Source: a virus (lineage: Duplodnaviria; Heunggongvirae; Uroviricota; Caudoviricetes). From it: DNA of 40,059 bases. The notes under the pieces were generated by a model. The model saw only the letters and a program-made list of their open reading frames with translations, made no database searches and had not been told where the DNA came from. The position numbers were made by a program, and so were the translations under genes. Shown piece by piece: positions 9,053 to 23,753 of this stretch. The stretch is from the IMG/VR virus record IMGVR_UViG_3300046491_000064, positions 1-40,059 of that record. One strand, 5' to 3'. How positions within the stretch are numbered: position 1 is the first letter of the stretch; the number at the start of each line of letters is the position of its first letter.

Positions 9053-9277
9053 ATGATCGATATCACGACAGCAACAAAACTTGGCGAGATTCTGGAAACT
9101 GCCGCAAATGAATATCGAATCCGAATGGATTGCCAGTTTCAATACGATTCGTTTGCTGATGCTGTCGGTCGTGAATTCTGGTTAGCCTTTGGAAAGCATG
9201 AGCAATCATCGCTCATGCAAGAAGTGTATTCTTTGCTTTGTGACATGGGTTTCACTCCGCTTGAAACCTTGAAGTAA
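9053..9277 (+). CDS. last early hypothetical protein (74 aa)
   Basis: AAGGA SD. Confidence 0.75.
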   Translation: MIDITTATKLGEILETAANEYRIRMDCQFQYDSFADAVGREFWLAFGKHEQSSLMQEVYSLLCDMGFTPLETLK

Positions 9278-9283
9278 CCAAAC

Positions 9284-9311
9284 AAGCCCCTCACAGAAGA
9301 GGCTTTTCTTT
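9284..9311 (+). terminator. imperfect intrinsic terminator ending the early block
   Basis: AAGCC..CTC/GAG-GCTT stem followed by TTCTTT. Confidence 0.6.
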
Positions 9312-9368
9312 ATGTCGCAATTATGTACGAATGTCGCAATTCTATAAAATCAGTTGACAGCATGTCGC
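9312..9368 (+). repeat. ATGTCGC direct repeats (9312, 9331, 9362; also 9952) around a TTGACA-16-TATCTT promoter candidate at 9354
   Basis: ATGTCGCAATT occurs twice exactly, then ATGTCGCTATT. Confidence 0.6.
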
Positions 9369-9399
9369 TATTCTGTATCTTTATGTCCCAAAAGGGTAT

Positions 9400-10150
9400 A
9401 GTCAGAACTGACTGTTTCACGATAAAATGCTCTTATCTTCGGGGGCTGCCCCCGGACGTGATAGAGAGAGGTGGGACAAGCCCACCAAAGTATTAGAAAG
9501 AATGTATATTATGTACGTAGTACATAGTAATAAGGTGTTACTATGCTGTAGCATAGAATAACATAGGAAAGAGAGGGGAGTAAACCCCCCTCCTACTACC
9601 TTCTATAATGCACTGTCGTGAACGACAGAATAACAGACTCTACATCAGATCAATTACAGGGGAAGCATCCCCTGATCCTATCCTAGCTCTGTACAAGGTA
9701 CAGAATAGCTATCATGTCTGTCTTTGTATAAGACACCATCCTATAGGCATAGCCTATGTAATACCCTCATTTAATCAAACTCTTATATTACGTGGCTTTG
9801 AGCCACAAGGTATAACCATTTCACCTCATTTATGAGGTAATAAGCCTATTCTGGTATATGTGAATACTCGTCGAAGAATGAGACATTTCTGTCTATTGGC
9901 TAAGCATCCCTTTCTCATTATGTCAATAGTATCCTGTCGAACAGACAGTAAATGTCGCATTTATGTACATTTCATATGCATTATCGAATCCTATTGAGTG
10001 GATCATTCTAATAGGAAAGATATATTGTACAATCGTTGATCATCAGCGTATGCTGATCAGTGTGGTGTGTATGCCTGTGCAATGCAGGCGGTAAGCAATC
10101 AACGTGCCATGTTCAATCCCCAATCAAATGTAGTCTGACCCTAGTGAGGG
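9400..10150. repeat. array of about 19 short inverted repeats of unrelated sequence
   Basis: Mostly 5-7 bp Watson-Crick stems with 2-5 nt loops; listed in findings. Confidence 0.8.
10094..10110 (-). promoter_or_regulatory. sigma54 consensus box ATGGCACGTTGATTGCT
   Basis: Full TGGCAC-N5-TTGC match. Confidence 0.5.
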
Positions 10151-10212
10151 AGGGCATATTGCTCTACGCATAACTGTTATTATGTTAAATCGGCAGGTAT
10201 AGTAATTGCATT

Positions 10213-10229
10213 AGCAAAGAGTGTGCCAA
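10213..10229 (-). promoter_or_regulatory. sigma54 consensus box TTGGCACACTCTTTGCT
   Basis: Full TGGCAC-N5-TTGC match. Confidence 0.5.
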
Positions 10230-10486
10230 TTCAGCTATATGATGATAGTGGTTGACAGAATGACATGAGTATGATTTGAATCTGGACCGATAGCCTGTCT
10301 CTACGGATTTTGAGATTCTTATAGACCCCCTCTATTCGTCCAAGTCCGGGGCGTTAAACCCACTAGAAATACCGCTGGTAGATTCGGGAAGATAAGTGTT
10401 GCGGAGGGATTGTGTATCGGGGTAGAATATGTCATTGGTGGAAATTGGGCTTTCCAAAAATGGGGGTTTGGGATTTTGGGGAAAAT

Positions 10487-10511
10487 GAAAAAGCCCCTAC
10501 AGAGAGGGGCT
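10487..10511 (-). terminator. intrinsic terminator ending the minus-strand block
   Basis: AGCCCCT/AGGGGCT stem followed by TTTTT on the minus strand. Confidence 0.75.
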
Positions 10512-10649
10512 AGTTTGTGCATCTAGTTCTTTTAACTTCAGTCGAATCCAGTCAATTCGTTCTTGTCCTGTCATTCCTTTTCTTGGAAATGAAATGGTGC
10601 CACTGTTGATTGACTTAGTGATCTTGTCCATGTCGAAATTGAAAGTCAT
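10497..10649 (-). CDS. hypothetical protein (MTFNFDMD..., 50 aa; not in ORF track)
   Basis: ATGA overlap with upstream gene; stop lies inside the terminator. Confidence 0.5.
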   Translation of the reverse strand: MTFNFDMDKITKSINSGTISFPRKGMTGQERIDWIRLKLKELDAQTSPSL

Positions 10650-10888
10650 GATAGTGCTGATTTTGGAATGTCATTGAGTTGTTCGGGGAATGTTCCTCCT
10701 TGGTCTTCTAGCCATTCGTTGTCTACTTCGTATTGAGTTACTGATTCGATGTAATGATATGTGATTAGCTCTATCCAGTCTGAATTAGAAAGGCTATGTT
10801 TCTCTGTCCAGAGTTGACCATCGAGGTATAGGCCGATCCAGTCGCAATCGGTTGATGTACAGAGTGTAACATTCTTATGCACTACCAT
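10646..10888 (-). CDS. hypothetical protein (80 aa)
   Basis: AAGGAG SD, operon context. Confidence 0.7.
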   Translation of the reverse strand: MVVHKNVTLCTSTDCDWIGLYLDGQLWTEKHSLSNSDWIELITYHYIESVTQYEVDNEWLEDQGGTFPEQLNDIPKSALS

Positions 10889-11195
10889 TGTCTTCTCCTT
10901 TTGGTTTATCGATTGTTCCGTAGAGTCTCATGTTCTCAAGCATTTGATGAGCGTCATCGATAGCTGATTGATAGTCGTCGTAATCTTCTAGCGGTGTAAT
11001 CTCTGACCATTCGATGTAGAAGATGTCGTACATTTTGCTTGGGTATGCACGGTAATCTTTCACTCGTGTCCAGTCTACTTCATAGTCGTTATCTTTGAAG
11101 ACTGTTGGTAGTCCAAGCATTCGAAGGTGTGTCATTGGTGACAGGTTTGAGCCTACCATTTCTAATGCTGATATTGATATGCTACGTCTGGTCAT
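10875..11195 (-). CDS. hypothetical protein (MTRRS...)
   Basis: ATGA overlap with the CYTH stop. Confidence 0.65.
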   Translation of the reverse strand: MTRRSISISALEMVGSNLSPMTHLRMLGLPTVFKDNDYEVDWTRVKDYRAYPSKMYDIFYIEWSEITPLEDYDDYQSAIDDAHQMLENMRLYGTIDKPKGEDNGSA

Positions 11196-11662
11196 TCTTT
11201 CCATCCTTTGTACGGATTGTTGATCAGGTAGGAGTTGTAGTAACGGACATCGCCTGTCACTTCCTTGCCTACGAATGGTGGCTTACTCACCTTTTGGTCT
11301 TCATCTCTGAGTTCGATTTCAGCGAGTATCAATCCTTCGTTGTCACCATGGAATTCGTCTACTTCCCAATACTCTTCGTCGTACATGATAAGGTATCGGG
11401 TCTTTTCGATCACGCCTACGCAGAGTGCTAGTAATTCTTCGGCTTCATCAACCTCAATGTCTTTTTCCCATTCATACCGGGATAGTCCGTCATCAGATGA
11501 AATGCCTTTGACTGTGATGAAAGCTAAGTTGCCATGAATACGCACACGAACAGTTCGTTCGGGGTCAATGCTTAGATACCCTTGTTTAATCTCTTTCGCT
11601 TCAATGTATGGTGTTGACAGCGTGCTAGCATCAACTAGGTACTTTCTTTCAATTTCGATCAT
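11192..11662 (-). CDS. CYTH-domain protein (class IV adenylate cyclase / triphosphate tunnel metalloenzyme)
   Basis: EIERKY N-terminal ExExK motif, RTVRVR, RYEWE, IEKTR, EVDEF, LAEIE; start at ATG 11662 with GGAG SD. Confidence 0.9.
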   Translation of the reverse strand: MIEIERKYLVDASTLSTPYIEAKEIKQGYLSIDPERTVRVRIHGNLAFITVKGISSDDGLSRYEWEKDIEVDEAEELLALCVGVIEKTRYLIMYDEEYWEVDEFHGDNEGLILAEIELRDEDQKVSKPPFVGKEVTGDVRYYNSYLINNPYKGWKE

Positions 11663-11729
11663 AGTTTGTTCTCCAGTGCTTTGATTATCAGGTATGTGAA
11701 TACACAGACAGCGAACAGTATGGCCCAAA

Positions 11730-11975
11730 TCACTTCCATACATTTCTCCAAGGTTGCCGACAGATAATAAAGTCTGTCCAGTGTGAGTATCCGCCCACAC
11801 CGGTTCCGTTGTAATACTCTGCCCACATGTAAGCGTAGTTGAGGTCATCTTCTTCAATGCAGTGTACGCAGCTTACCATGTAGTTTGATGCATTCTCTAC
11901 AAAGCTTGTATTGCGGTGTCTGGATTTGATTGGACCTACACGTTTACGAAGGCAGCAAGGACATTGTTTTCTCAT
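11730..11975 (-). CDS. hypothetical Cys-rich protein (CPCC...CVHC)
   Basis: ATGA overlap. Confidence 0.65.
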   Translation of the reverse strand: MRKQCPCCLRKRVGPIKSRHRNTSFVENASNYMVSCVHCIEEDDLNYAYMWAEYYNGTGVGGYSHWTDFIICRQPWRNVWK

Positions 11976-12235
11976 CGTCTAACAACCTTGCCTGTGAATG
12001 TGTAATAGCGTTCTTCATCCTTTACGCTATCGATCATATAACGTTTAGTGCAGTCTAGGCATTTCACGTTGATCCAGAATTCACGATTAGTGAAACAGTC
12101 ACTGTCACTGCTTTCATATTCACCTTCAGTTTTATGGTGGGGGCATTTGCTTTGAAGGTGTTGCAGTTCAGATACGAGTCTGTTCTGCATGTCTGTGATT
12201 CTTTTTACTTTCTCACGAATAGTCATAGTGCTCAC
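11972..12235 (-). CDS. hypothetical protein (87 aa)
   Basis: Coupled overlaps on both sides. Confidence 0.7.
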   Translation of the reverse strand: MSTMTIREKVKRITDMQNRLVSELQHLQSKCPHHKTEGEYESSDSDCFTNREFWINVKCLDCTKRYMIDSVKDEERYYTFTGKVVRR

Positions 12236-12462
12236 CAGACAAACCTCGAACCGGGTAGAAGTACAAACCCGCTGTATTCAGGGTAATTGGTATCGATGTA
12301 TTCACGTAGTTCTTGCTCATCCCACATTGATGGAATGCTGAATGTTGTCTCGTATGCGTCTATGCGTCCTCCATAGATTTCAACATTCGATTCTGATTCG
12401 TGACAGCAGCCGTCGCCACATGCTTCGAATGTAAAGTATTCGTATCGGATTGAGTAGTTCAT
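12232..12462 (-). CDS. hypothetical protein (76 aa)
   Basis: AAGGAG SD, overlaps. Confidence 0.7.
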   Translation of the reverse strand: MNYSIRYEYFTFEACGDGCCHESESNVEIYGGRIDAYETTFSIPSMWDEQELREYIDTNYPEYSGFVLLPGSRFVW

Positions 12463-12647
12463 TTGTTCTCCTTGGCTTGCTGTAGTGCATGTTCTAGCAC
12501 TTCAATTGCATTAGGCCAACTACCATCAAGCACAGCCTGATTGTAACCAGCATCTATACTATCGTTCATGTACCTATCAATGAAGTCATGAGACACTTCA
12601 CGTTCACGCAAGTGACGTAGATCGTCACACATTTGACACTTACACAT
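12459..12647 (-). CDS. hypothetical protein (MCKCQMC..., 62 aa)
   Basis: AAGGAGG SD at corrected start. Confidence 0.7.
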   Translation of the reverse strand: MCKCQMCDDLRHLREREVSHDFIDRYMNDSIDAGYNQAVLDGSWPNAIEVLEHALQQAKENK

Positions 12648-12657
12648 TTTAGCCTCC

Positions 12658-13044
12658 TTATTCAAATTCGTCTTGAAGTGCGATATCGATCCACTCACGA
12701 AGTTCACCGACATCAGAACCCCAAATATTGCGAGTGTGAAAACCGATTGACATGAAGCAACCATTGTCAGCAAGCCAGATGCAGATACGATGACCAGTTG
12801 GTTCAAATGTTAACCCGTATGGTGAACGAATTCTTGTGATGAGGTACATACACTGATCAACTGTCAGTGGTTCGTTGCTTACAACAGACTGTGCTTCGAC
12901 ACCGCACATCCCAAAACTGCGATGGTATGGGCTACTTTCAGGAAATGGTGCTACATGCCATACTACAGTGTCAGCATATTCGAAACGAGGTGACCCCGGA
13001 AGGGATTTGTTGTCTTTGCTGATGTTGATTTGTGTCCGTTTCAT
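12658..13044 (-). CDS. hypothetical protein (128 aa)
   Basis: GGAGGGG SD. Confidence 0.75.
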   Translation of the reverse strand: MKRTQINISKDNKSLPGSPRFEYADTVVWHVAPFPESSPYHRSFGMCGVEAQSVVSNEPLTVDQCMYLITRIRSPYGLTFEPTGHRICIWLADNGCFMSIGFHTRNIWGSDVGELREWIDIALQDEFE

Positions 13045-13205
13045 TTCCCCTCCGCGATGAGTTTACGTTCGACTTGTTTAATCAATTGCCAACTGGTATT
13101 TAGGTAAGCTTCTCTGCTTTCGATTGTCCACAGATAGTTCCGTGAGTTAGCCGTTGATAATAGCAGGTCGGTCAGCATTGTCAAGTATTCGCGATGAACG
13201 ATCAT
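13041..13205 (-). CDS. hypothetical protein (MIVHREY..., 54 aa; not in ORF track)
   Basis: AAGGAG SD, ATGA overlap. Confidence 0.6.
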   Translation of the reverse strand: MIVHREYLTMLTDLLLSTANSRNYLWTIESREAYLNTSWQLIKQVERKLIAEGK

Positions 13206-13215
13206 TTTGTTCTCC

Positions 13216-13401
13216 TTATGCTAATTGAATTGCGATACCCCAAAGGGTAAGGCTACCGATGCTAAACAGAAGTGCGATCAATTCCCACCTGTCTCTCCAA
13301 AGGTTTGTATATCGATGGTCGGCTACATTCATTGCAATCAGTGAGACGGCAAAGAATAAAAAGCCAATCAACCACAGCATGTCTGCCAGCGTTCCATTCA
13401 T
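13216..13401 (-). CDS. small two-helix membrane protein (61 aa)
   Basis: Two hydrophobic segments, AAGGA SD. Confidence 0.7.
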   Translation of the reverse strand: MNGTLADMLWLIGFLFFAVSLIAMNVADHRYTNLWRDRWELIALLFSIGSLTLWGIAIQLA

Positions 13402-13412
13402 TTTTGTTTTCC

Positions 13413-13628
13413 TTATGTGTAAAATAGTATTTTTGGTTTAGGTGTTTGTTCTTTCTCTTCCCGTATACGAGCTTCTTCAGCTAGAAGATTCCGAAAGTAG
13501 GAATCACAGTCATCAAGACTGTATCGTTCTGCAAGGTGTTCCCAAAATAGAAATGCACGTCTTTGATAAATGCGATATACCTTGTCATTTGGTGAATAAT
13601 GGTATTCTACAACCTTAAATCGATTCAT
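13413..13628 (-). CDS. hypothetical protein (MNRFKVV...)
   Basis: AGGAG SD at ATG 13628. Confidence 0.7.
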   Translation of the reverse strand: MNRFKVVEYHYSPNDKVYRIYQRRAFLFWEHLAERYSLDDCDSYFRNLLAEEARIREEKEQTPKPKILFYT

Positions 13629-13935
13629 ATCGTCTCCTAATTGATCCATCGTTGTTGCATTGTGTCAGTTCATAGCCCGCATACTCAATATCGGGTATTG
13701 AGATGTGTGTAAACCATTCACCTTGTACTCTACGCCTACTGAACAGAGAATGCAAGCCTTTTTCTACATCAATTGCACGGGCGTCTGTCGTTTGCCAGCA
13801 ACGAATGATCTTAATGTGCGTACCAGATGCCAATTCGAGTTGACGCTGGCGTTTTACTGGGTTGATAGCGATTCCAATCTTGTTCAGCTGGTGGTCATTC
13901 TCCATCAGGTATAGTCTTTGATTTTCTCTTACCAT
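13615..13935 (-). CDS. T5orf172 / MUG113-like (GIY-YIG superfamily) protein
   Basis: YLM...KIG...P..R...L ... E..LH..F...RVQGEWF pattern. Confidence 0.8.
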   Translation of the reverse strand: MVRENQRLYLMENDHQLNKIGIAINPVKRQRQLELASGTHIKIIRCWQTTDARAIDVEKGLHSLFSRRRVQGEWFTHISIPDIEYAGYELTQCNNDGSIRRRYESI

Positions 13936-14186
13936 CTGTACGCCTTATTGCTCTGACCATCCATATAACCATCGTGATAGGCTTGCAGAATTTCCATTCT
14001 CGATTTATCAATGGCTTCGAAATGTTTCTGAATTAGCTGGTTGACTTGAGTCTGAGTGTATTTCTTCTCTCCCCTGACTAGGTGGTTATCCCGAACAGTT
14101 GGTGTATAATAATCGTCATCTCGTTGCCCTCCCATACCGCCGTATAGGTCAGGTTCTGAGTCATCCATTGAATATGGTACGTGCAT
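13929..14186 (-). CDS. hypothetical protein (85 aa)
   Basis: AGGAG SD. Confidence 0.7.
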   Translation of the reverse strand: MHVPYSMDDSEPDLYGGMGGQRDDDYYTPTVRDNHLVRGEKKYTQTQVNQLIQKHFEAIDKSRMEILQAYHDGYMDGQSNKAYRW

Positions 14187-14213
14187 TTCATTCTCCTAGA
14201 ATTGGTAAAACCC

Positions 14214-14408
14214 TCAATTAAGAGGGTTCTTTAGTAGTGCGGTCAGGGTATCGATTGTTGACTGATACAGCTTTCGCTCACGATCAAATGCATCTTCAAT
14301 CTGTGTGATCGTGCTCTCATGCGATTGCCAATGTACGTAATCACCAGTGAGTGACTTGTAACCATAAAGGTTTTCAAGCGTACCACTTGTGCAATAGAAC
14401 TTACTCAT
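14214..14408 (-). CDS. hypothetical protein (MSKFYC..., 64 aa)
   Basis: Start reassigned because another ORF occupies 14401-14580. Confidence 0.6.
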   Translation of the reverse strand: MSKFYCTSGTLENLYGYKSLTGDYVHWQSHESTITQIEDAFDRERKLYQSTIDTLTALLKNPLN

Positions 14409-14580
14409 CATCAATGTCCTCATCGTTGTAAAGTCGAACGACATCATCACCGCCACCATATGTCATGCTTGATACGCCGAACCAACCAATGGCATCGGGG
14501 CAAAAGATTTGCACACATTGGTCTTCGCCACACATGATAGCGATTGATTCCAGTTTGTTGATCAGTTTACGAATGTTCAT
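14401..14580 (-). CDS. hypothetical protein (MNIRKLINK..., 59 aa; not in ORF track)
   Basis: ATGA overlap with upstream gene. Confidence 0.65.
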   Translation of the reverse strand: MNIRKLINKLESIAIMCGEDQCVQIFCPDAIGWFGVSSMTYGGGDDVVRLYNDEDIDDE

Positions 14581-15056
14581 TTGGGCATTCCCTCATATAC
14601 TTGGTCAAGATGACCTCTGATTTCCATCCTGCGTAGTGCAGAATACATGTAAGCAGTTTCATTCACCTTACTTCCACTAAATGGAGCATCGAATACCCAC
14701 TGAGTGTTTCTAGGCCAACCCGTTGTTTTGTTCACTCTTCCCTTTTCACTGACTTCGAGTAAACCCCAACCGGTTGGAAGTTCGCTTACAGTGATTAATC
14801 CACGAGGAACCATCATAAATCGCCAGTCACCCATACCCATTGTTGGGTCTTTCCTGAATCGCTTCTTACGATCAGCTAGGAAGTCTGCACGGCTTGTCTT
14901 ACATTCAATCAAACAAGATGTACCATTCCTGAATCCCATTGCGTCAGGCTGTTCACCAGATGGTGTAAGAGCACGAAACTTATCATGAAAGGCAACACCG
15001 AAGCCATTCCGCTTCAAGAAACGATAGCCGATATCACAAAGTTCATCGTGCGTCAT
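14577..15056 (-). CDS. PD-(D/E)xK nuclease-fold protein (MmcB-like)
   Basis: EQPDAMG ... LIECKTSRADF..D..K motif. Confidence 0.75.
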   Translation of the reverse strand: MTHDELCDIGYRFLKRNGFGVAFHDKFRALTPSGEQPDAMGFRNGTSCLIECKTSRADFLADRKKRFRKDPTMGMGDWRFMMVPRGLITVSELPTGWGLLEVSEKGRVNKTTGWPRNTQWVFDAPFSGSKVNETAYMYSALRRMEIRGHLDQVYEGMPK

Positions 15057-15340
15057 GGGCAACAGAACTCATTCTTACCACAGTATGAATAATCCCGATT
15101 AAACTCAGACAAGTCACATGGTAGATCATAGTATTCTTGGCAGCTTCGGCATTTTACGTACACAGAACCTCTACTATCCGAAACTACCTGATCCATTTCT
15201 TCAATCTTTTGCTGTAGGTCTCTCACTTGCTTGCTCTCTTGGAACAAAGATGATGCCAAACCTGACACCAACATCTCTACATCGCCATTCGATAACCGAA
15301 AGCCTTCGAATAGTGCGTTAATATACTGTTGCTCGTTCAT
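15053..15340 (-). CDS. hypothetical protein with C-terminal Zn-ribbon-like Cys pattern (95 aa)
   Basis: CRSC ... YCGKNEFCC; coupled overlaps. Confidence 0.7.
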   Translation of the reverse strand: MNEQQYINALFEGFRLSNGDVEMLVSGLASSLFQESKQVRDLQQKIEEMDQVVSDSRGSVYVKCRSCQEYYDLPCDLSEFNRDYSYCGKNEFCCP

Positions 15341-15852
15341 CTTTTCTCCCTCAATAGTAATTCAAGCTCTTCTAGACTGTATTCATCCAAGTCAAGCTCT
15401 GACTGAAAGCCTTTACGTACAATGTTCACCATTCCCTTACCTGCTTTGTCGTTATCACCGATTCCAATCAGATTGAATGGCAGTGTATGCAACCAACTTC
15501 GCATTGGTTTTGGATTTGATGTCAGCAAGGCTAATGCATTATTGCCCAACATGTGTAAGGCGCTTGCCTTAAAGATTCCCTCGACAATGTACAGGTCTTT
15601 ATTACGGTAGTCAAGCGTTTCCAATCCCCAACAGGCATTCACACCTCGTGCTGAGTGTGTGAAGTACCTTCCATCTTTGGCATTGTTCGTCTTTTTACAG
15701 GTGACTGTTGATCGATATTGTTGGAAGCCAACAAATTGACCGGCAAGATTGCTCAAGTACACGGTCAGAACTTCATTCTCAAGATCAAGCACCTGATTGA
15801 CATAACGAGTTGGATCATACTTACGTGTAAGTAAGTGCTTAATCAAATCCAT
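15337..15852 (-). CDS. stand-alone primase-like Toprim protein (candidate Rad-type anti-retron)
   Basis: YIVEGIFKA and GIGDND Toprim motifs; no Zn finger or helicase domain. Confidence 0.75.
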   Translation of the reverse strand: MDLIKHLLTRKYDPTRYVNQVLDLENEVLTVYLSNLAGQFVGFQQYRSTVTCKKTNNAKDGRYFTHSARGVNACWGLETLDYRNKDLYIVEGIFKASALHMLGNNALALLTSNPKPMRSWLHTLPFNLIGIGDNDKAGKGMVNIVRKGFQSELDLDEYSLEELELLLREKR

Positions 15853-16131
15853 CTATCTCCCCTTTGGTGGTTGTGCTTTGTTATACTCATCCATATCTTT
15901 ATGCCACTTTTCCATGTTAATGGCATGGTGAACATATTCCTCATTGCAGCAACATTCTGTACAGACATATGTTGGTGGCACATCATGACCCGTGAGTGTG
16001 ATCTTCCAGACACTTACAAGCTTGAATTCGTAATGGCAGAATCGACATTGTACCCAGTTGAATACTGGCGTTACCTTTTTGATGATTAGTGGCGTACTAG
16101 CCACATTATTTTTGTCGCTTGCGCGTTTCAT
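15853..16131 (-). CDS. hypothetical Zn-finger protein (CRFC...CTEC)
   Basis: ATGA overlap, two CxxC pairs. Confidence 0.7.
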   Translation of the reverse strand: MKRASDKNNVASTPLIIKKVTPVFNWVQCRFCHYEFKLVSVWKITLTGHDVPPTYVCTECCCNEEYVHHAINMEKWHKDMDEYNKAQPPKGR

Positions 16132-16358
16132 CGGCGGTTACCCTTCTCACGCTTTGCCAATCCTTTCATTACCATCCCATGAATGGTACGAACACAGTAA
16201 TATGCAATACCTGCAAGGATGTAGAGTGGGGTAAGTTTAGGATCGAGCAAGCAAAGTACAATGATAACAAAAGTCACAATTAAGATTAGTGCTGTCACTA
16301 CCCAAGCTTGTTTGCGAATAGACAGGTTCTTGTAAGCATCTTTAATACGGTTAAACAT
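16128..16358 (-). CDS. small two-TM membrane protein
   Basis: Hydrophobic segments; TGATG overlap. Confidence 0.7.
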   Translation of the reverse strand: MFNRIKDAYKNLSIRKQAWVVTALILIVTFVIIVLCLLDPKLTPLYILAGIAYYCVRTIHGMVMKGLAKREKGNRR

Positions 16359-16741
16359 CAGTGCCAACTCCTAGTTTTGAAATGGGTTTGAAGAATATCA
16401 CACATGTCACGATAGATCAATGGGCTTTTCTCTTTCATCTTGGCTAGACCAGTACCTAGACCATCTGCCGGGAATACGAGTGTACGCATTTTACCTTGCG
16501 TATACAAGTCCCTGAGTGCATTTAATACGTGATTCCTCTCACAATCTTTATCATGGAAGAATGCACCCTCATGCATTGTCGGGAATCGCTTTGTTGGAAT
16601 TCCGAAAGCATTATTCTGATATCGGATGATAGCCTGACCACCAGTACCTGTACCTGCCAGATTGTCTCCGAAAATAAACAGCTTGTCAGGGTTGTCCGTA
16701 CAATCTTTTACACAATACCTGCTCATGTATTCAATATTCAT
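16358..16741 (-). CDS. conserved phage protein, possibly macrodomain-like (FIFGDNLAGTGTGGQA...AFGIPTK)
   Basis: Recognised FxFGxNxxGxxxxGxA family motif; fold assignment inferred. Confidence 0.6.
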   Translation of the reverse strand: MNIEYMSRYCVKDCTDNPDKLFIFGDNLAGTGTGGQAIIRYQNNAFGIPTKRFPTMHEGAFFHDKDCERNHVLNALRDLYTQGKMRTLVFPADGLGTGLAKMKEKSPLIYRDMCDILQTHFKTRSWH

Positions 16742-16755
16742 TAATTCTCCAGATA

Positions 16756-16781
16756 CAATAATGCCCCGACAGAGCGGGGCA
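16756..16781 (-). terminator. hairpin TGCCCCG/CGGGGCA, weak terminator
   Basis: Reverse complement nearly identical to terminator 34052. Confidence 0.5.
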
Positions 16782-16785
16782 GTTG

Positions 16786-16962
16786 TTATTCTTGAATGTC
16801 AGCTGCTCGTTGCCGTGCCTCGTGCCATGTTTCAAAGTGAGCCAGTGCGATTTGCTCATTGGTCAACTTGCTTACATCACGAATGAATCGTTTGAAGTTG
16901 TTGAACACGTTACGGTCTTGACCTTCCCCCTGTGTGATCTTGCTGATGTCTGGTGCTGCCAT
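16786..16962 (-). CDS. hypothetical protein (MAAPDISK..., 58 aa; not in ORF track)
   Basis: TAATG overlap, GAGGGA SD. Confidence 0.6.
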   Translation of the reverse strand: MAAPDISKITQGEGQDRNVFNNFKRFIRDVSKLTNEQIALAHFETWHEARQRAADIQE

Positions 16963-17156
16963 TATTGAAGTCCCTCACTTTGGTGGTATTCGATTGTGTA
17001 TGTCCCGTCTGACATCTTTGAAATGCCTACCATCTCTGGTTCACAGAACCGGATGAAATCAAGAGCTTGGTCGAGTGTATTGAAATCTCTCACCATCGCA
17101 TCTGGTCGGAAAACTTCAGTTACCTCGATTGTACCTTCAATTGATTCCACGACCAT
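16962..17156 (-). CDS. hypothetical protein (64 aa)
   Basis: GAGGGGAG SD. Confidence 0.65.
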   Translation of the reverse strand: MVVESIEGTIEVTEVFRPDAMVRDFNTLDQALDFIRFCEPEMVGISKMSDGTYTIEYHQSEGLQ

Positions 17157-17892
17157 TACTTACTCCCCTCATAAATTCAGAATTGATTTCGAATACGTTC
17201 AGCTTATCACGGAAAAAGCTACCAGCATCAGCAAATACCATGTTCCCCAGTTGTTCAACATCGCCACTATCTGTAGGCGTATGTCCAGCAAGAACGAAGT
17301 CAACGCCTGCCACTTGCTCTTTGAGTTGGTAATCATACCATGTCCGACTCCACTGTGCAACTGCCTGACCATTCCATTCAAGCTCCATAGGATCGATGTT
17401 TACGAACTTATCCCAATCCTTGTATGGAACTTCAGCGTGCACGATACCAGCTTTGCGTCCGTGTGGCAACAACAATTCGATACCGAGGGGCATACTTTTG
17501 AACATTTCACAGATTGCCTTGCTTTTTGCCTTATCCAGTGATAGTGCCCATGTTCCACCATTTGCAAGAAGACAGCGGACAGATCGGTTCTGTTGGAACC
17601 AACCACTCATTTCTGCATCAATGAACATTTGTTCGTGATTACCACGAGCGCTGAAAATCCAATCTGATTCAAGGAAGTCTAGCACATGCTTGCTGTCTGG
17701 TCCACGGTCAGTCCAATCACCAGCCGACAACAGAATGTCTGTCTTCGAGTTAAATGCTAGGTCTGACAACCCTTCCATCAAAAGGTCATAATAACCATGT
17801 GTGTCGGTAGCGAAAAACACGCGACCTTTGAATTCTCGTAAATCGAGTTGCTGAATGTGATTGCAGCTACCGATCCTTACCTGCTTGAGCAT
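17137..17892 (-). CDS. serine/threonine protein phosphatase (calcineurin-like metallophosphoesterase, lambda NinI/PphA type)
   Basis: DTHG, GDWTDRGP, RGNHE, VHAE and GHTP motifs. Confidence 0.92.
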   Translation of the reverse strand: MLKQVRIGSCNHIQQLDLREFKGRVFFATDTHGYYDLLMEGLSDLAFNSKTDILLSAGDWTDRGPDSKHVLDFLESDWIFSARGNHEQMFIDAEMSGWFQQNRSVRCLLANGGTWALSLDKAKSKAICEMFKSMPLGIELLLPHGRKAGIVHAEVPYKDWDKFVNIDPMELEWNGQAVAQWSRTWYDYQLKEQVAGVDFVLAGHTPTDSGDVEQLGNMVFADAGSFFRDKLNVFEINSEFMRGVSNGRGIN

Positions 17893-18029
17893 TTCATATC
17901 CTCTGCTAATTTGGGAAACTCAAGTTTGAACTTTTCCCATGATTGAATCCACTCATGTGTACGAATGGCGTTTTGACGCATCTCTTCGATTGTTGGTGTA
18001 GGTGGTATAAGCTTAATCTGCGTAAGCAT
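17877..18029 (-). CDS. hypothetical protein (MLTQIKL..., 50 aa)
   Basis: Fills the gap between SLOG and phosphatase genes. Confidence 0.45.
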   Translation of the reverse strand: MLTQIKLIPPTPTIEEMRQNAIRTHEWIQSWEKFKLEFPKLAEDMKCSSR

Positions 18030-18543
18030 TTACAATCTCCATAATTTGTTCTGGTGTATGGTTACGATCAACACCATCTTCGAACCGCATTTTGTAGCCA
18101 GCGGGCCACATACCTTCGCATTCGATACCAATCTTAGCCGCTGCAATAAGTCCAGCAAGATCAGCACCTGTCTGACCTCCTGAAACTACTTTATCCAGCT
18201 TCCAGTGCTGGTCTACCTGATGCAACACTCGTCGCACATAGTCATTCATCATAACCTGAGTGATTTCGTATTTAGTAAGTGTGTAAATACCATTACCTGC
18301 AACGTTAACCACACGACTGTCATGTTTACGAAGCATGGCGAATAACTGTCGAGCACCTGCGAGCCATTCTTCAGCGAAGTTCTTTGCATCAATGTGAACG
18401 ATCTTACCAGCGGCAGCTTTGGTTGTCAACTTTTCACCAGCAGTGGTGAAGTCGGCTGCAATAGCCAACGTTACACCCTGCGAAGCATTATGGTAAGTCC
18501 GTGGTGCATAACTACTGCTCTTATGTTCACGGATTTTAATCAT
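18013..18543 (-). CDS. SLOG-superfamily protein (cpYpsA / MoCo-carrier-like), halves swapped
   Basis: YAPRTYHN...TLAIA..F...GEKLT at N-terminus, VVNVAGN, and KVVSGGQTGAD near C-terminus. Confidence 0.8.
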   Translation of the reverse strand: MIKIREHKSSSYAPRTYHNASQGVTLAIAADFTTAGEKLTTKAAAGKIVHIDAKNFAEEWLAGARQLFAMLRKHDSRVVNVAGNGIYTLTKYEITQVMMNDYVRRVLHQVDQHWKLDKVVSGGQTGADLAGLIAAAKIGIECEGMWPAGYKMRFEDGVDRNHTPEQIMEIVNAYAD

Positions 18544-19766
18544 TCCAATGGTTTCCCATCAGCATCACATTCACGAATCAGCTTTCCTGCCGGAAATTGG
18601 GGTTTCAAGGTCTTCTTGTATCGAGACTGGAATGAAACAGTCATGTACTGACCGGCAAAGTCGTCATCGGCAACAGCTAACCGCCAGCTATAATCACCAA
18701 GTACACAGTTGAACTCGTTGTCTGTGATGTTGTTCTGCATGGTGAATACGACATAACCTTGTTTGTCTTTGGTTGTACCGTTGATGCGGAATTCCTCATC
18801 GATCATCTCTTTGTACTTCCACAGTTCAGTCGAGCGTTTACCGCTTTCATACTCACCGTGTGAAGTGCGATACATGATGCCTTCATAGCCACGACTTACT
18901 GCGTCTTTGTGCAGCTTACGCAGACTGTCCATGCAGTTTGCAAAACCGTAAGGTACAAGAACAACCTTGCCACCTTGTTTGAACTTTGCACTGTAGGCAG
19001 TCAGGTTATTCAACCGCTGTGCAAATGGTACATCAAATTCGATGATATCGAATACTCGGAACTCAAGCTTTGGTCGAATCTCAAGGATCAATTGAGCCTG
19101 TTCAACTTCAGCTGCTTTCTTTTCTTCTTTGTCTGTACCGATTGCCTTCTTGTGAGCCTTGATTGCTGCTTCAAGTTTCTTTTCAGGGTCAGTACGCTTT
19201 ACTGCCGAATTGATATCTTGCAACACTGGACCATGAACATACAGTTCACCGTCAAGAATGTCACCAACTTCCATGATTGTAAGAAGCTCAGCCTCGATAT
19301 GAGGCACGCTGTGATCCTGCCCGGTACGTGTCTTCAAAAGAACTTGTTTAACGCCTTGTACGAGCTTACAGAAGGCGAGACAGCGTATCCCATCGAGCTT
19401 GTCACTTACATATACACCTTCTTCGACAAGTTCTTCTTTTCCGTCTTTCTGGTGGTTACTTGCAAGCATAGCCAGAATAGGAAGATCATCAAGCTCTTCC
19501 TTAGTTGTGCGATAGTTCTTGTCAAGTTGAGTTTTCACCCGACTCTCACACTGAAACACCGCTTGTTCATAAGGTGTGCGGCCTTGCTTACCTTCATTCA
19601 CGTATTCAGTCTTTGATGTAAGCTTGCCACCTTCCTGACCGTGAGTGATAGTGAACCCTGCACCGTCTTTATCAAGGTCACCGCCGTGTACATGGAATGC
19701 TCCAATGTTCCACACTTTGTATGTGCCGTTCTTGTTAAGACCGAACAGTTTTACTTCATAGTTCAT
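18540..19766 (-). CDS. lig: ATP-dependent DNA ligase with WGR-like N-terminus
   Basis: KLDGIR (I), LDGELY (III), FRVFDI (IIIa), EGIMYR (IV), WKYK (V); start at ATG 19766 with GGAG SD. Confidence 0.93.
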   Translation of the reverse strand: MNYEVKLFGLNKNGTYKVWNIGAFHVHGGDLDKDGAGFTITHGQEGGKLTSKTEYVNEGKQGRTPYEQAVFQCESRVKTQLDKNYRTTKEELDDLPILAMLASNHQKDGKEELVEEGVYVSDKLDGIRCLAFCKLVQGVKQVLLKTRTGQDHSVPHIEAELLTIMEVGDILDGELYVHGPVLQDINSAVKRTDPEKKLEAAIKAHKKAIGTDKEEKKAAEVEQAQLILEIRPKLEFRVFDIIEFDVPFAQRLNNLTAYSAKFKQGGKVVLVPYGFANCMDSLRKLHKDAVSRGYEGIMYRTSHGEYESGKRSTELWKYKEMIDEEFRINGTTKDKQGYVVFTMQNNITDNEFNCVLGDYSWRLAVADDDFAGQYMTVSFQSRYKKTLKPQFPAGKLIRECDADGKPLE

Positions 19767-20016
19767 TGATTTTCTCCATTTCGACGGTGTACATAGTATG
19801 TGATGTGTCACTATACACAAACTTCAGACGATAGTCACTAATTTTCAGAAAAGGATTTTGCAGAATCCACTGACAGACGTATGCTTCCTGATTGGTTACA
19901 AGGAAATTGCGTGCCTGCTCCTGAATCTGCACACGCATGTCATTAATCTGCTCTTCTGTCAATTCATCAATGAGTTTTTGCTTTGTGTCATTGATTACAG
20001 CATCCACATTAATCAT
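19756..20016 (-). CDS. hypothetical protein (86 aa)
   Basis: Operon context. Confidence 0.7.
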   Translation of the reverse strand: MINVDAVINDTKQKLIDELTEEQINDMRVQIQEQARNFLVTNQEAYVCQWILQNPFLKISDYRLKFVYSDTSHTMYTVEMEKINEL

Positions 20017-20227
20017 GAGTCACCAAGTATTCGAAGTCTTTGTCGAAGAGTGCTGTCGTATACGAATACTCGCATTCTGCAACAGGTACTTTACGAATAT
20101 AGCCATTGTCAGGACCATGCTTACCTGAGATGTAACCTGAGAAACCTTCAACGTGAATGATGTCACCTTGTTTGTTGTGGAATGTCAGTGACGCATCACC
20201 ATAAATCTTAGTTACAATTACCCGCAT
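20009..20227 (-). CDS. hypothetical protein (72 aa)
   Basis: GAGGTG SD. Confidence 0.7.
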   Translation of the reverse strand: MRVIVTKIYGDASLTFHNKQGDIIHVEGFSGYISGKHGPDNGYIRKVPVAECEYSYTTALFDKDFEYLVTHD

Positions 20228-20651
20228 TGTTCACCTCGTATTGTTCAACGTGAATGCCTTTTCGGCGTAGGAAATCAATACCATCAGTCATTCGGTATTG
20301 TTCGTCATAGAATACAGCACTTACACCTGCTTGGTAAAGCAATTTCGCACAAGGGAGACAAGGACTTAGTGTCAATACAACATTGCTGCATTTAAGGCTT
20401 ACACCTTCTCGTGCTGCCTTTGCTACCAAGTTGCTTTCACAGTGAAGCACTTCTGGATGAGTGATAAGCTCACCATTGATTTCGATTTCACATTCGTTAT
20501 CGTCTTGTGCTGGTCTGCCGTTCCATGAATACACCATTACATCTTGAGGGGTAATTGCTACCCCTCCCACTTTCTTGCGAACTGCACGAGAAAGCTTTGA
20601 GAATGCATATGCCGATTCCATGTACGGTTTCAACATCTTATGTCTGATCAT
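20208..20651 (-). CDS. dCMP deaminase (CMP/dCMP deaminase family)
   Basis: HCE...N and SPCLPC zinc-binding motifs. Confidence 0.9.
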   Translation of the reverse strand: MIRHKMLKPYMESAYAFSKLSRAVRKKVGGVAITPQDVMVYSWNGRPAQDDNECEIEINGELITHPEVLHCESNLVAKAAREGVSLKCSNVVLTLSPCLPCAKLLYQAGVSAVFYDEQYRMTDGIDFLRRKGIHVEQYEVNNAGNCN

Positions 20652-21091
20652 TAGACACCAATAAAGAAGCGATAGTGTTGGAAGTCACGCTTACTCATGA
20701 ATTCAACCTTATCGGATTGAACTTGTACACCGAGTTTCTTGCTGAACGACAGCTTCACACGTTTGACAATCTTGGTAGTGCCTGCAAACAGATCAATAAT
20801 CGCATCTTCGTTCTTGATCACATATTCTTGGAACGATGTGTTTGGTTCTACACGAATGTTCTCGAAAGTGGTTTCAGCAAGTTCGTTGTGCATCTTGATT
20901 GCTGAAAGTACGGACACTCGACGTTTACCTGTGCTTGCAAATCGAGGTTGAACAAAAGCAGCCAACCCGATATTGAAATCGTACAGTGGTTCATACCCGC
21001 GTGCAGCCATGAAGTTGACTACCGACAGTTCTTGCAGTTCTTGAGTACCAGATACCTTATCGAAAGTATCAACACCAGCTTTGTAAGTCAT
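20651..21091 (-). CDS. conserved hypothetical protein (146 aa)
   Basis: AAGGAG SD, TAATG overlap. Confidence 0.8.
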   Translation of the reverse strand: MTYKAGVDTFDKVSGTQELQELSVVNFMAARGYEPLYDFNIGLAAFVQPRFASTGKRRVSVLSAIKMHNELAETTFENIRVEPNTSFQEYVIKNEDAIIDLFAGTTKIVKRVKLSFSKKLGVQVQSDKVEFMSKRDFQHYRFFIGV

Positions 21092-21105
21092 TTATTTCTC
21101 CTTTA

Positions 21106-21393
21106 TTAACGTTTCTGTTGTCCGCGTCTGGTAGCAGTACCAGTGCAGCTAAGACCGCCTGACTCCAAACGACTTTTGGTCTTTTCTGTCTTGGAAGGGA
21201 TAACTGTATACTTCCCTTTCCCGTATTGCTCATTTACATATGCTTGTGCAGAGAGCCTGTCGGATGTCTTCATAAAGATGTAGTTACCTTTAGCATCTCG
21301 AATGTAGTAACTACCGTATGGGATAAAGTCTGGACTTGTGAATTCTTTGAACTCTACCACAACTGTTTTCATTTCTTTCTTCTTTTCAGCCAT
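21106..21393 (-). CDS. basic hypothetical protein (95 aa)
   Basis: Operon context. Confidence 0.75.
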   Translation of the reverse strand: MAEKKKEMKTVVVEFKEFTSPDFIPYGSYYIRDAKGNYIFMKTSDRLSAQAYVNEQYGKGKYTVIPSKTEKTKSRLESGGLSCTGTATRRGQQKR

Positions 21394-21396
21394 ACT

Positions 21397-21600
21397 TTAC
21401 ACAAACTCCTTACGCATTGTTTGCAGCATATCAATCGTTTTGTCAATATCATCTTTCTTCAGAGTAAGATGAGCACAGCGACCTTCGGCGTCCTCCCAAC
21501 AAGTAAGAACAATGAAGGAATTTCTCTCTGGTGATTTGGTTGGGTAATACCTTGCGGTGATATCGTCATCATTCGACAGGTCTACTTCAATAGTAATCAT
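21397..21600 (-). CDS. hypothetical protein (MITIEVD..., 67 aa)
   Basis: GGAGG SD at ATG 21600. Confidence 0.65.
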   Translation of the reverse strand: MITIEVDLSNDDDITARYYPTKSPERNSFIVLTCWEDAEGRCAHLTLKKDDIDKTIDMLQTMRKEFV

Positions 21601-21721
21601 ATTCGATATCCTCCGGGTAATATGGTGGCTCATCATCCCAATCGGTAAATCCATCATCTTCATGTTCTTCGCTGTAGAACTCTTGGTAAGGCTCTTCAAG
21701 CCAGCGATCATAATCACTCAT
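21587..21721 (-). CDS. acidic and aromatic peptide (44 aa, 18 D/E; not in ORF track)
   Basis: TAATG overlap with upstream ORF. Confidence 0.55.
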   Translation of the reverse strand: MSDYDRWLEEPYQEFYSEEHEDDGFTDWDDEPPYYPEDIEYDYY

Positions 21722-21885
21722 TACAGCACTTCCAGAATAAGCTTGTCCAGATCATCCTTATCGGTATTAGGAAGATTGTACAGCATCTCACGGATATCAG
21801 GCTTCAGCATTTCAAGTTCGTGATGAGCATAACCTAGACGTTTTGCTTGGTCAGTGATGTACTCAATTGCTTCGTTCATTTTCAT
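21721..21885 (-). CDS. hypothetical protein (MKMNEAIE..., 54 aa; not in ORF track)
   Basis: GAGGA SD. Confidence 0.6.
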   Translation of the reverse strand: MKMNEAIEYITDQAKRLGYAHHELEMLKPDIREMLYNLPNTDKDDLDKLILEVL

Positions 21886-21887
21886 AC

Positions 21888-22124
21888 TTATTCCTCTTCC
21901 CGTGCAGAGTCGATAGCTGCATTAATCTTGTATCGAATATTATCCTCATCAATCATTACACCTGATGCACAGAATGTTTCAATATCGTTCACATACAAAT
22001 ATGCGAAGTCTTCCACGTCTGAAATCTCTGAGAGCATGTGTTCGAATGTACCGTGACCAAGATAGAGATACGTGTCACAAGATTCAGAGTTGAATGAAAC
22101 AGCCATCGTGAATTGGAAGTCCAT
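21888..22124 (-). CDS. acidic hypothetical protein (78 aa)
   Basis: TAATG overlap. Confidence 0.7.
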   Translation of the reverse strand: MDFQFTMAVSFNSESCDTYLYLGHGTFEHMLSEISDVEDFAYLYVNDIETFCASGVMIDEDNIRYKINAAIDSAREEE

Positions 22125-22375
22125 TACTCGTCACCAACATTTACAACATAGTTAGCGTTAAGAATAGCTTCGAGTCGTTCGCTAACTTCAAAACCGGTTT
22201 CTTCAGTTTCACCATCAACAAAGACAAAGATGTCGAGGATTGTACCGTCTTCAGGTTTAAAATCTGTAGCCATCTGTCTAACGATGTCTTCGTACACGGC
22301 AATTTCGTTATCACCATTTGCAACGCCAAGGTATGTGTTATTGGTAAGAGTTACGTGGTATGCAGCAATCATCAT
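22124..22375 (-). CDS. acidic hypothetical protein (MMIAAY..., 83 aa)
   Basis: AAGGAG SD at ATG 22375. Confidence 0.7.
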   Translation of the reverse strand: MMIAAYHVTLTNNTYLGVANGDNEIAVYEDIVRQMATDFKPEDGTILDIFVFVDGETEETGFEVSERLEAILNANYVVNVGDE

Positions 22376-22385
22376 ATTGTTCTCC

Positions 22386-22496
22386 TTAGTGGATTGTTTT
22401 ACTTGGTGCTTCTTGTTTAACCACAACGTCATCGAAGTGAGGGAACTTGAAAGCAGGAGTGTATTGTACAGGGTGTTTGCTGGTTTGCATAGTCAT
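22386..22496 (-). CDS. small ORF (MTMQTSKH..., 36 aa)
   Basis: AGGAG SD, ATGA overlap. Confidence 0.45.
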   Translation of the reverse strand: MTMQTSKHPVQYTPAFKFPHFDDVVVKQEAPSKTIH

Positions 22497-22780
22497 TTTA
22501 AGTCTCCTAGTGCAGATTCAACACATTCAGTCCAGTGACCGCCACCATTATAGTGATAGGTCTCGAAGTCAATGCTTCCATCGTCATTCAGTTTTACACG
22601 CTGGAAACCGTAAAGCTGTTCTCTTTTGTTCTGCCATTCAACTTGATAGATTTCACCGTCAATAGATACGAGTCCGTTATCATGCAGAAGATCATCTAGT
22701 TCATCCGGGTTCTCACTGTAAATCTCTGGATCGATACCTGTAGGGATAAGACGACCTCGATTGTATTCCATATCACTCAC
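22493..22780 (-). CDS. hypothetical protein (95 aa)
   Basis: GTGA overlap. Confidence 0.75.
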   Translation of the reverse strand: MSDMEYNRGRLIPTGIDPEIYSENPDELDDLLHDNGLVSIDGEIYQVEWQNKREQLYGFQRVKLNDDGSIDFETYHYNGGGHWTECVESALGDLK

Positions 22781-23253
22781 TTCTTGAACCCTCCGAGTAA
22801 TTGAATTTGTTTGGTGTATTTATTGATACGCTTGATGTTCATATCTTTCAGACTATTCGAAAGATTGGCGGCAGTATCGCAAAGCTTAACCTTCAAGGCA
22901 AGAGGATTAGCCTTAACCGCTTCGATGTAATCTTTGTAACTCTGACCTTCGTGTTTTGTGATTGCCTTGACAGCATCAACAACATCGACACAAATACCGA
23001 GTTCAGTAAGTGTATCACAGGTGCAGTCTGTATCTTCAATGATATCATGCAGGAAAGCGATAGCACGAAGGCAGTCAACCTCGTCACCGGGTTCTTTGCT
23101 GAACTGCTCAGATGGTAATTTAACATTGGCATACATATGTACAACATTGCGGTCAACTTCAATCAGATGGACCAAATATGAAACATCACCGTACATTTGG
23201 CCTTCATGATAGACAATGGCAAGCTCAAGAGCGATTGGTAGTTGTTCATTCAT
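22777..23253 (-). CDS. HD-domain phosphohydrolase, RelA/SpoT hydrolase (Mesh1/HDDC3)-like
   Basis: HEGQ..G..SY..HL..V, AFLHDIIEDT, VKLCD...NL. Confidence 0.88.
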   Translation of the reverse strand: MNEQLPIALELAIVYHEGQMYGDVSYLVHLIEVDRNVVHMYANVKLPSEQFSKEPGDEVDCLRAIAFLHDIIEDTDCTCDTLTELGICVDVVDAVKAITKHEGQSYKDYIEAVKANPLALKVKLCDTAANLSNSLKDMNIKRINKYTKQIQLLGGFKK

Positions 23254-23695: not shown

Positions 23696-23725
23696 TTGAT
23701 GACCCTGTGTTTGTTTGATGTGCCT

Positions 23726-23753
23726 ATTCTATCAGAAGTGGTTGATACGTCAA
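23726..23753 (-). promoter_or_regulatory. promoter TTGACG-16-TAGAAT (early-type)
   Basis: ATAAAGC UP element as in early promoters; TATCA/TGATA inverted repeat in spacer. Confidence 0.8.

Follow-up and report, generated by a model that had tools for sequence, protein, structure and literature searches.

We have analyzed the first 40,059 bases of a 105,735-bp tailed phage genome from the IMG/VR database (virus record IMGVR_UViG_3300046491_000064). This whole stretch is called the window here, and coordinates given without a genome name refer to it. A gap of 1.2 kb without genes (9278-10496) contains the subject of this work, a dense array of short hairpins. The gap is located where a block of small genes on the + strand meets a long block on the - strand (from ~10497 to 29873); the blocks are convergent and a terminator closes each of them. 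Large genes of the phage include those coding for DNA ligase, NAMPT, PRPP synthetase, polynucleotide kinase, RNA ligase, terminase, portal and protease, and there are 12 tRNA genes. Among the nearest cultured relatives, the terminase is 82% identical to that of vB_PpS_SYP (hereafter SYP), 71% to that of phiPMW (Plaisancevirus), 66% to that of vB_PsaM_M1 and ~40% to those of Pakpunavirus. The phage is a member of the phiPMW/SYP clade and a Pseudomonas-type phage. The record carries a "direct terminal repeat" that is an exact overlap of 127 bp between its ends; this is an assembly overlap, a sign of circular assembly, and does not mark a physical end.

The initial annotation of this DNA, made from its letters, had listed 20 inverted repeats in the gap, and all of them are real. 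A script found 19 again as perfect Watson-Crick stems, and the other one (CCTATT/AATAGG, 9990-10015), with a 14-nt loop beyond the limit of the scan, is visible by eye in the sequence. Further stems not in that list were found at 9523-9545 (8 bp) and 9847-9866. We counted the stems with loops of 2-8 nt between 9380 and 10160 and in 1000 dinucleotide shuffles. There were 18 stems of at least 5 bp (4.95 +/- 1.97 in the shuffles), 14 of at least 6 bp (1.41 +/- 1.12, with a shuffle maximum of 5) and 5 of at least 7 bp (0.39), and none of the 1000 shuffles reached the observed number at any length class. The array is also the maximum of the whole genome (781-nt sliding windows over the 105,735 bp), where the mean was 1.46 stems of at least 6 bp and the second-densest place, the tRNA cluster, had 7. 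The suspected excess over shuffled sequence was thus confirmed. The folding energy had z values against the shuffles of -7.5 for the + strand and -5.1 for the - strand. The interval marked in the initial annotation comprises the dense array (9400-9894) and the first 250 bp of a predicted terminal repeat (see below), in which five sparser hairpins are found (9934-10089).

The anatomy of these elements was examined by pooling 139 distinct hairpins from 14 genomes, i.e. this phage and the 13 relatives described in the next paragraph. Most stems are of 6 bp (72) or 7 bp (48), the other 19 having 8-11 bp, and the loops are A/T-rich and typically of 3 nt (60), 2 nt (32) or 4 nt (20), closed mainly by a C-G or a T-A pair. 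Along the 5' arm a pyrimidine (C or T) lies beside the loop in 70% of the cases and a G one position outward in 53%. The centers of neighboring hairpins are separated by distances that peak at 28-32 nt and again at 40-50 nt. The stems had been described as unrelated in sequence. They do differ from each other, but a loose consensus near ATGTGC-ATA-GCACAT is shared, and some recur in distant members (a G-rich stem after GGAAAGAG, AACAGGG/CCCTGTT, ATGGCT/AGCCAT and ATGTCGT/ACGACAT). The spacers of the + strand are G-poor in all 14 arrays (G 0.155 against C 0.224), pyrimidine-rich ahead of the stem and A-rich behind it. There are no long repeats within the gap, no direct-repeat family within the array and no open reading frame (ORF) inside it that is conserved among the relatives. 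A cluster of intrinsic terminators was discarded because the array stems are followed by A-rich sequence without a U-run; terminator-like hairpins are limited to the flanks (9284-9310 and 10492-10511) and one stem on the - strand (9572-9593). Likewise, CRISPR, repetitive extragenic palindromic (REP) and type III antitoxin repeat arrays were discarded, as there are no copies of one repeat and the stems are mutually different.

A search with the gene next to the gap, which codes for a protein of 221 amino acids, gave no close relatives, and they were collected through the terminase instead. We scanned the first 50 kb of phiPMW, the surroundings of the record ends in SYP, seven IMG/VR genomes completely and six more in 3-kb stretches round a conserved motif. 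One hairpin hot spot each was found in 13 relatives, namely SYP, phiPMW and the IMG/VR genomes G002 to G007, G009, G010, G012, G014 and G015, with 9-17 stems of at least 6 bp per 800 bp over genome means of ~1.4. Wherever the gene context was read (phiPMW and SYP), the hot spot was in the matching convergent gap. Among the arrays of the window, SYP and phiPMW there is no alignable sequence, although their terminases are 71-82% identical, and the comparison of the gap with 50,697 phage records at the nucleotide level gave no near match, the sole distant one being a 100-nt piece in SYP. For the seven genomes that could be aligned, compensatory double changes appeared in 27 of 87 stem column pairs, against 3-9 when the partners were shifted by 1-2 columns. 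RNAalifold on the seven-genome alignment found double changes in 18 of 60 pairs. Because the arrays persist unaligned and the alignable stems carry compensatory changes, our analysis indicates that selection acts on base pairing rather than on sequence, in agreement with what the initial annotation had proposed.

The hot spots were weak or missing in vB_PsaM_M1, G011 and Rheinheimera Barba5S. The contig G016 (94% complete, linear) has no array, but its sole match is an unrelated terminator, which makes it uninformative. Besides, we scanned viral contigs with a 16-mer of the R-site (one of the predicted repeat edges, Table 1) and found 19 loci, with arrays only at the known relatives. Twelve unrelated matches, used as a control, had 0-4 hairpins, and the thirteenth locus without an array was the record of phiPMW itself, cut 205 nt upstream of the motif. 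In the alignment that we call A1, RNAalifold also paired columns 125-131 with 343-350, i.e. the purine run GGAAAGAG with CTCTTCC some 220 nt downstream, with three covarying pairs and several G-U pairs. This may be a long-range helix or mere purine/pyrimidine complementarity.

Table 1. Features in and around the gene-free gap (window coordinates; ^ marks the predicted cut).
Feature	Position	Strand	Remarks
Last ORF of the block of small + strand genes	9053-9277	+	
Terminator-like G+C hairpin followed by a T-run	9284..9310	+	Closes the block of small + strand genes; read in the sequence and also flagged by a terminator scan
Three direct 16-nt repeats, ATGTCGCWATTMTRTA	9312, 9331, 9362 (span 9312..9377)	+	The third fills the spacer of P1
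Promoter P1, TTGACA-16-TATCTT	9354..9381	+	Reads into the array
Dense hairpin array	9400..9894		15-16 perfect stems of 5-8 bp, loops of 2-8 nt
L-site, GGCTAAGCATCCC, GGCTAA^GCATCCC	9898..9910		Predicted inner (left) repeat edge, cut after 9903
Predicted direct terminal repeat, 453 bp	9904..10356		Collapsed to one copy in the circularized assembly
Second promoter-like element, TGTACA-17-TATGCT	10026..10054	+	Inside the predicted repeat; as read from the sequence
Sigma-54-type -24/-12 element, TGGCAC-N5-TTGC	10095..10109	-	Would read leftward into the array
Second sigma-54-type -24/-12 element, TGGCAC-N5-TTGC	10214..10228	-	Inside the predicted terminal repeat
Conserved G/T-rich block, GGGATTT-type repeats on both sides of the R-site	10300..10480		11-genome alignment; nucleotide matches to SYP and phiPMW
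R-site, AAGTCCGGGGCGTTAAACCCA, cut form AAGTCCGGGGCGTTA^AACCCA	10342..10362		Predicted outer repeat edge, cut after 10356
Intrinsic terminator	10492..10511	-	Closes the - strand gene block

The GenBank record of SYP has an exact repeat of 351 bp at both ends, which exceeds any k-mer overlap that an assembler would leave. Read in the window orientation, this repeat starts 5 nt past the last hairpin of the array, within GGCTAA^GCC, and stops inside GGGGCTATTA^AGCC, which is the SYP version of the R-site. The first of these motifs (GGYTAAGC(A/C)TC) is present in 11 genomes, 351-447 bp ahead of the R-site. The R-site is 93-100% identical in G005, G006, G007, G012, G015 and phiPMW over surrounding DNA that has diverged, and both sites are alike (TAA(A/G)C). 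From the SYP end repeat and the conserved counterparts of its two edges we predict the direct terminal repeat of Table 1. The link to a terminal repeat that the initial annotation had considered would hold in this form, the array ending at the predicted inner edge of a short repeat. The conserved block around the R-site, which also carries an inverted GGAAA..TTTCC, is a candidate for the terminase recognition region, since such regions often have repeats on their flanks. An apparent ORF there (10319-10522) matches the relatives on both strands, indicating that the conservation is in the DNA and not in a protein. Genome ends or cut-site motifs of the clade are not reported in the phiPMW and SYP papers, the latter describing no end mapping. 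In the Pakpunavirus PaP1 a terminal redundancy of 1190 bp was mapped by run-off sequencing (PMC3652863). It is located at the matching junction after the early genes, with GTTAAG a few bases from both edges, and these mapped ends give independent support from a distant relative to the predicted repeat. We also observed that in phiPMW (KU862660) the annotated gp59, gp60 and gp61 (52-72 amino acids; 20814-21352) fall in the non-coding stretch where the R-site motif (21096-21117) and the predicted repeat are found. They are unlikely to be genes.

The initial annotation had also pointed out a promoter upstream of the array, and this promoter (P1) is indeed there. A near-consensus sigma-70 promoter just upstream of the array and pointing into it was found in 11 of the 14 genomes, with scores of 10-12 of 12. 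The counterpart in SYP, G006 and G015 is TTGACA-18-TATAAT, and those of G004, G005, G007, G010, G012, G014 and phiPMW score 10-11. After the -10 box a GCYC is conserved (start region TATAATGCYC), and in 8 genomes the first stem begins 10-13 nt past the -10 box, a few nucleotides from the likely start site. If the site at which the array stops and the R-site are the two edges of the terminal repeat, transcription from P1 would run outward through the array into the repeat. The step from selection on structure to an element acting at the DNA level, which the initial annotation had taken, fails at this point. With a conserved promoter reading into the array, an RNA, the alternative mentioned there, is at least as likely.

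A fourth copy of the 16-nt repeat ATGTCGCWATTMTRTA is found inside the predicted terminal repeat (9952-9967) and there are no more in the window, while TGTCGCNATT is confined in the genome to the repeats of the gap and one occurrence at 25815. The copies over P1 look like an operator, and their overlap with the promoter suggests that its transcription is regulated. The second promoter-like element has counterparts in G006, G015, G012 and G010 (TGTACA-17-TATAGT, TATTAT or TATATT), with variants in G004 (TATACA-17-TATTAT) and G007 (TAGACA-17-TAGTAT). Only three perfect matches to the sigma-54-type element exist genome-wide and two of them are in the gap; an element of this type lies on the - strand between array and R-site in phiPMW, G004, G006, G007 and G015. 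Leftward transcription into the array from them is also possible. In or near the predicted terminal repeats of the relatives we observed the palindrome TGTTCCA-NN-TGGAACA (TGT-N10-ACA, the form of the NifA-type enhancer), at 294-309 and 107116-107131 of SYP, at 20515-20530 and 20735-20750 of phiPMW and also in G002, G004, G007, G012 and G014. It is missing from the window.

A similar situation is found in Pakpunavirus, where the ends of PaP1 and PAK_P4 are at the matching junction of convergent blocks, behind the early genes. In both phages no other part of the genome is as dense in hairpins as this one (67400-68800 in PAK_P4, KC862300; 90526-91715 in PaP1, HQ832595), and a GTTAAG-type motif lies near both edges of the PaP1 repeat. 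In PAK_P4 this stretch is transcribed. A non-coding RNA of 1.2 kb, PAK_P4as17, was annotated from RNA-seq on the strand opposite to the early genes (KC862300; PMC5563952), and the upstream gene block was found to be early (PMC5563952). Unlike the array described here, the hairpins of Pakpunavirus are located inside the repeat, overlap an HNH endonuclease gene and reuse stems (GATAGC three times, GAAAGC twice). The PaP1 paper says that the genome lacks complicated secondary structures (PMC3652863), and neither this paper nor that of PAK_P4 mentions hairpins.

The reading that we favor, to which we would give somewhat less than an even chance, is that the array is the template of a promoter-driven non-coding RNA with many hairpins that runs outward into the terminal repeat. 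The array would be an untranslated module at one genome end, with early-type genes on one side and the terminal repeat on the other, and P1 would send the host RNA polymerase outward through it. The RNA would measure ~0.5 kb up to the repeat edge, or ~1 kb if transcription ran off at the genome end. The hairpins would act in the RNA. With a stem near its 5' end and further stems at short distances, joined by G-poor linkers, a long untranslated transcript would stay folded and thus resist 5'-end-dependent decay, 3' exonucleases and Rho. The output could be polymerase traffic into the repeat or the concatemer junction, as in T7, or else a stable multi-hairpin RNA that accumulates early.

The T7 and T3 concatemer junction is the closest parallel to such traffic. 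It reportedly combines the phiOR promoter, pacB, the short-repeat arrays SRR and SRL and a terminal repeat of 160 bp. End processing in T7 requires that transcription from phiOR enter the junction, with pausing there. Both cases have a gene-free module that follows the last genes and leads to a short direct terminal repeat (a predicted one in this phage), an array of short elements that abuts the repeat edge and conserved cut-site sequences. The promoter that reads outward to the repeat may have its equivalent in P1, which is conserved and aims at the predicted repeat (derived from SYP), but P1 is of the host sigma-70 type whereas the T7/T3 promoter is read by the phage polymerase. The flanking arrays of T7 are direct heptamer repeats. 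Here there are instead ~15 dissimilar hairpins under pairing selection, and direct repeats (of the GGGATTT type) appear only around the R-site. The predicted repeat is also longer (350-450 bp), and we deal here with a myovirus whose relatives are Pakpunavirus and Ounavirinae.

RNA is favored by the conserved promoter at a fixed distance, the stem near the 5' end and the G-poor linkers on the strand of the promoter, and the RNA annotated at the junction of PAK_P4 also speaks for it. DNA is favored by the pure Watson-Crick pairing, by loops of very few nucleotides and by the fact that the array directly adjoins the repeat edge. Five tests that compared the strands were all neutral. Internal mismatches in otherwise good stems were G-T in 5 cases and A-C in 5, and in the alignment cells the numbers were 13 and 13, so that the stems are Watson-Crick only, as the initial annotation had noted for almost all of them, and show no tolerance of G-T limited to one strand. 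The first pair outside the stem was of the G-T type in 33 cases for the + strand and 53 for the - strand. The local folding energy with G-U counted was as low or lower for the - strand in 12 of 13 arrays, and the mean predicted probability of the hairpin pairs was 0.80 in the + strand RNA and 0.73 in the - strand (p = 0.2). The last two results weigh against a P1-driven RNA, and so do a number of other points. The lack of G-U tolerance is unusual for selected RNA helices, and loops of 2-3 nt (92 of the 139 hairpins) fit DNA hairpins at least equally. The array has no terminator of its own at its end, P1 of the window is weaker than its counterparts (TATCTT) and a clear P1 was not found in G002, G003 and G009. 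The terminal repeat is taken from a single GenBank record, that of SYP, the protection from Rho and RNases is reasoning only, and the RNA of PAK_P4 is on the opposite strand.

The main rival, which we consider possible but rather improbable, is an element that works as single-stranded DNA in the processing of the ends. The hairpins of the + strand would fold when exposed beside the terminal repeat, be it as the unreplicated 3' tail of the lagging-strand template, by 5'-3' resection or in the strand-displacement synthesis that duplicates the repeat at the concatemer junction. They would prime, limit or mark the repeat edge, with transcription from P1 being incidental or only an aid to open the duplex. 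The position of the array fits, as it stops 5 nt before the repeat edge of SYP and at the conserved L-site in 11 genomes. The strict Watson-Crick pairing with symmetric mismatch spectra and the predominance of small loops (2-3 nt) with C-G closing pairs point in the same direction, and the strand with G-poor spacers would be, by geometry, the one left single-stranded at that end. There is a precedent as well, since an inverted repeat beside the T7 terminal repeat has reportedly been implicated in hairpin-primed duplication of the repeat. But a single hairpin would suffice for priming and 15 are kept, the other end of the genome has no array, and a strong promoter conserved at a fixed distance from the first stem is left unexplained.

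The evidence of promoter and structure would equally suit an early decoy or sponge RNA acting in trans, which would titrate a protein of the host that binds RNA, a nuclease or a defense protein that senses RNA; the only importance of the genome end would be that this DNA is the first to enter. We think this unlikely. In its favor, the array would be the first transcription unit in the cell if the end with the early genes is the one that enters first, the corresponding gene block of PAK_P4 is early, and the + strand has a mild excess of triplet A-R-N runs (48 against 27.8 +/- 6.3). Nevertheless, no shared loop motif that one protein could read was found, the array lacks its own terminator, and the exact match between its end and the L-site speaks for an action in cis. 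Sponges of known type were compared and discarded. GGA is found in only 2 of the 139 loops, unlike what would be needed for RsmY/RsmZ (CsrB-type) RNAs, and the only relevant Rfam match, PrrB/RsmZ, is below threshold (18.4 bits against a gathering score of 44). The motif AANAANAA of CrcZ-type Hfq/Crc sponges is not enriched (9 in 7.5 kb of arrays, with 7.0 +/- 2.8 expected) and is not present in the window. The Rfam scan found nothing at threshold, the best score being 20.3 bits against a gathering score of 47.

A signal at the DNA level, by analogy with the injection stop of T5, was among the roles considered in the initial annotation. Cruciforms or protein-bound palindromes would pause the ejection, or act as a brake on the packaging motor, near the genome end. 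The untranslated Repeat Region 3 of T5 is the presumed injection stop signal (Davison, bioRxiv 10.1101/866236). Both regions are of ~1.2 kb, untranslated, rich in palindromes and conserved across their phage group, and both straddle the inner edge of the terminal repeat (a predicted one here). Besides, if packaging finishes at this end, the array would be reached by the motor right before the last cleavage. However, the T5 region is conserved in sequence, with long inverted repeats and direct repeats that follow one another in a constant order and with DnaA boxes in pairs, eight in all, and the array is not. The gap lacks long conserved inverted or direct repeats, and none of the 5 DnaA boxes (TTWTNCACA) of the window, where 6.2 are expected, is in 9278-10496. 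The repeat is also much shorter here, 0.35-0.45 kb (453 bp predicted) against 10 kb in T5. Position is a further difference. On the geometry that we infer, including which end is the first to enter, the early genes come behind the array, whereas in T5 the pre-early genes precede the region, and an ejection halted at the array would deliver no early gene to the cell. On general knowledge, duplex cruciforms also seem unlikely, as stems of 6-7 bp are short for their extrusion. Finally, a single dimeric protein cannot have 15 different palindromes as its sites, and the variable positions of the compensatory changes speak for pairing and not for protein recognition. We regard such a signal as very improbable, and the analogy with T5 does not stand. 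Least probable of all is a replication origin or priming region, as had also been suggested, for which a structured non-coding region with promoters on both strands might speak, but which has no positive evidence, there being no iterons, AT-rich unwinding tract or DnaA boxes, and R-loops being disfavored by the G-poor non-template spacers.

Two other known systems resemble the array in some aspects. The early promoters of phage N4, which are recognized by its virion RNA polymerase, are DNA hairpins with a stem of 5-7 bp and a 3-nt loop. Stems and loops are of similar size in the array, which is also near a genome end, but here there are 15 hairpins without genes behind them, no shared promoter sequence and a sigma-70 promoter. 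An N4-type system was discarded, as no giant polymerase gene exists (the largest ORF of the 105.7-kb genome has 1512 codons for amino acids). In bacteria, the REP and bacterial interspersed mosaic elements (BIME) and 5' stem-loops such as that of ompA are hairpins that stabilize or shield RNAs. They are also short, stable, untranslated stem-loops in which pairing weighs more than sequence. REP elements, however, belong to one sequence family scattered between genes, unlike the 15 different stems in one array with its own promoter found here.

Regarding the genes that flank the gap, the only conservation found was one weak ORF match in SYP, and none in phiPMW. The AGCCCC..GGGGCT hairpin equivalent to the terminator-like hairpin that closes the block of small + strand genes stands ahead of the array in the relatives. 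The protein of 221 amino acids (11192-11857, - strand) has its best homologues in jumbo phages of Pseudomonas, Vibrio and Aeromonas, some of them annotated with a CYTH domain, and is missing at the matching position in SYP and phiPMW.

The array is not mentioned in the papers on phiPMW, SYP, PAK_P4 and PaP1, and a search of the literature on arrays of hairpins next to terminal repeats gave no relevant result. We consider it a putative non-coding control module at the edge of the predicted terminal repeat. Its unusual and well-supported trait is the selection on pairing alone. A more speculative idea, which we put forward with clear reservations, is that it encodes a new kind of phage non-coding RNA, a modular chain of ~15 mini-hairpins that evolve independently, probably from the first DNA to enter the cell. 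It would either assist packaging or end processing, as a cofactor linked to the terminal repeat, or distract a host factor that binds RNA or senses it in defense.

The non-coding regions at phage genome ends control entry, first transcription, concatemer cutting and packaging, and few of them have been dissected (T7, T5, lambda, SPP1). Here, a clade of at least 14 phages keeps ~0.5 kb of DNA, enclosed by a strong promoter and a predicted repeat edge, in which nothing is conserved but the folding into a chain of short hairpins. Our analysis also predicts where the genomes of the clade physically end and which motifs mark their cut sites. With phiPMW and SYP in culture, the array is a clean and genetically testable case of selection on structure only.

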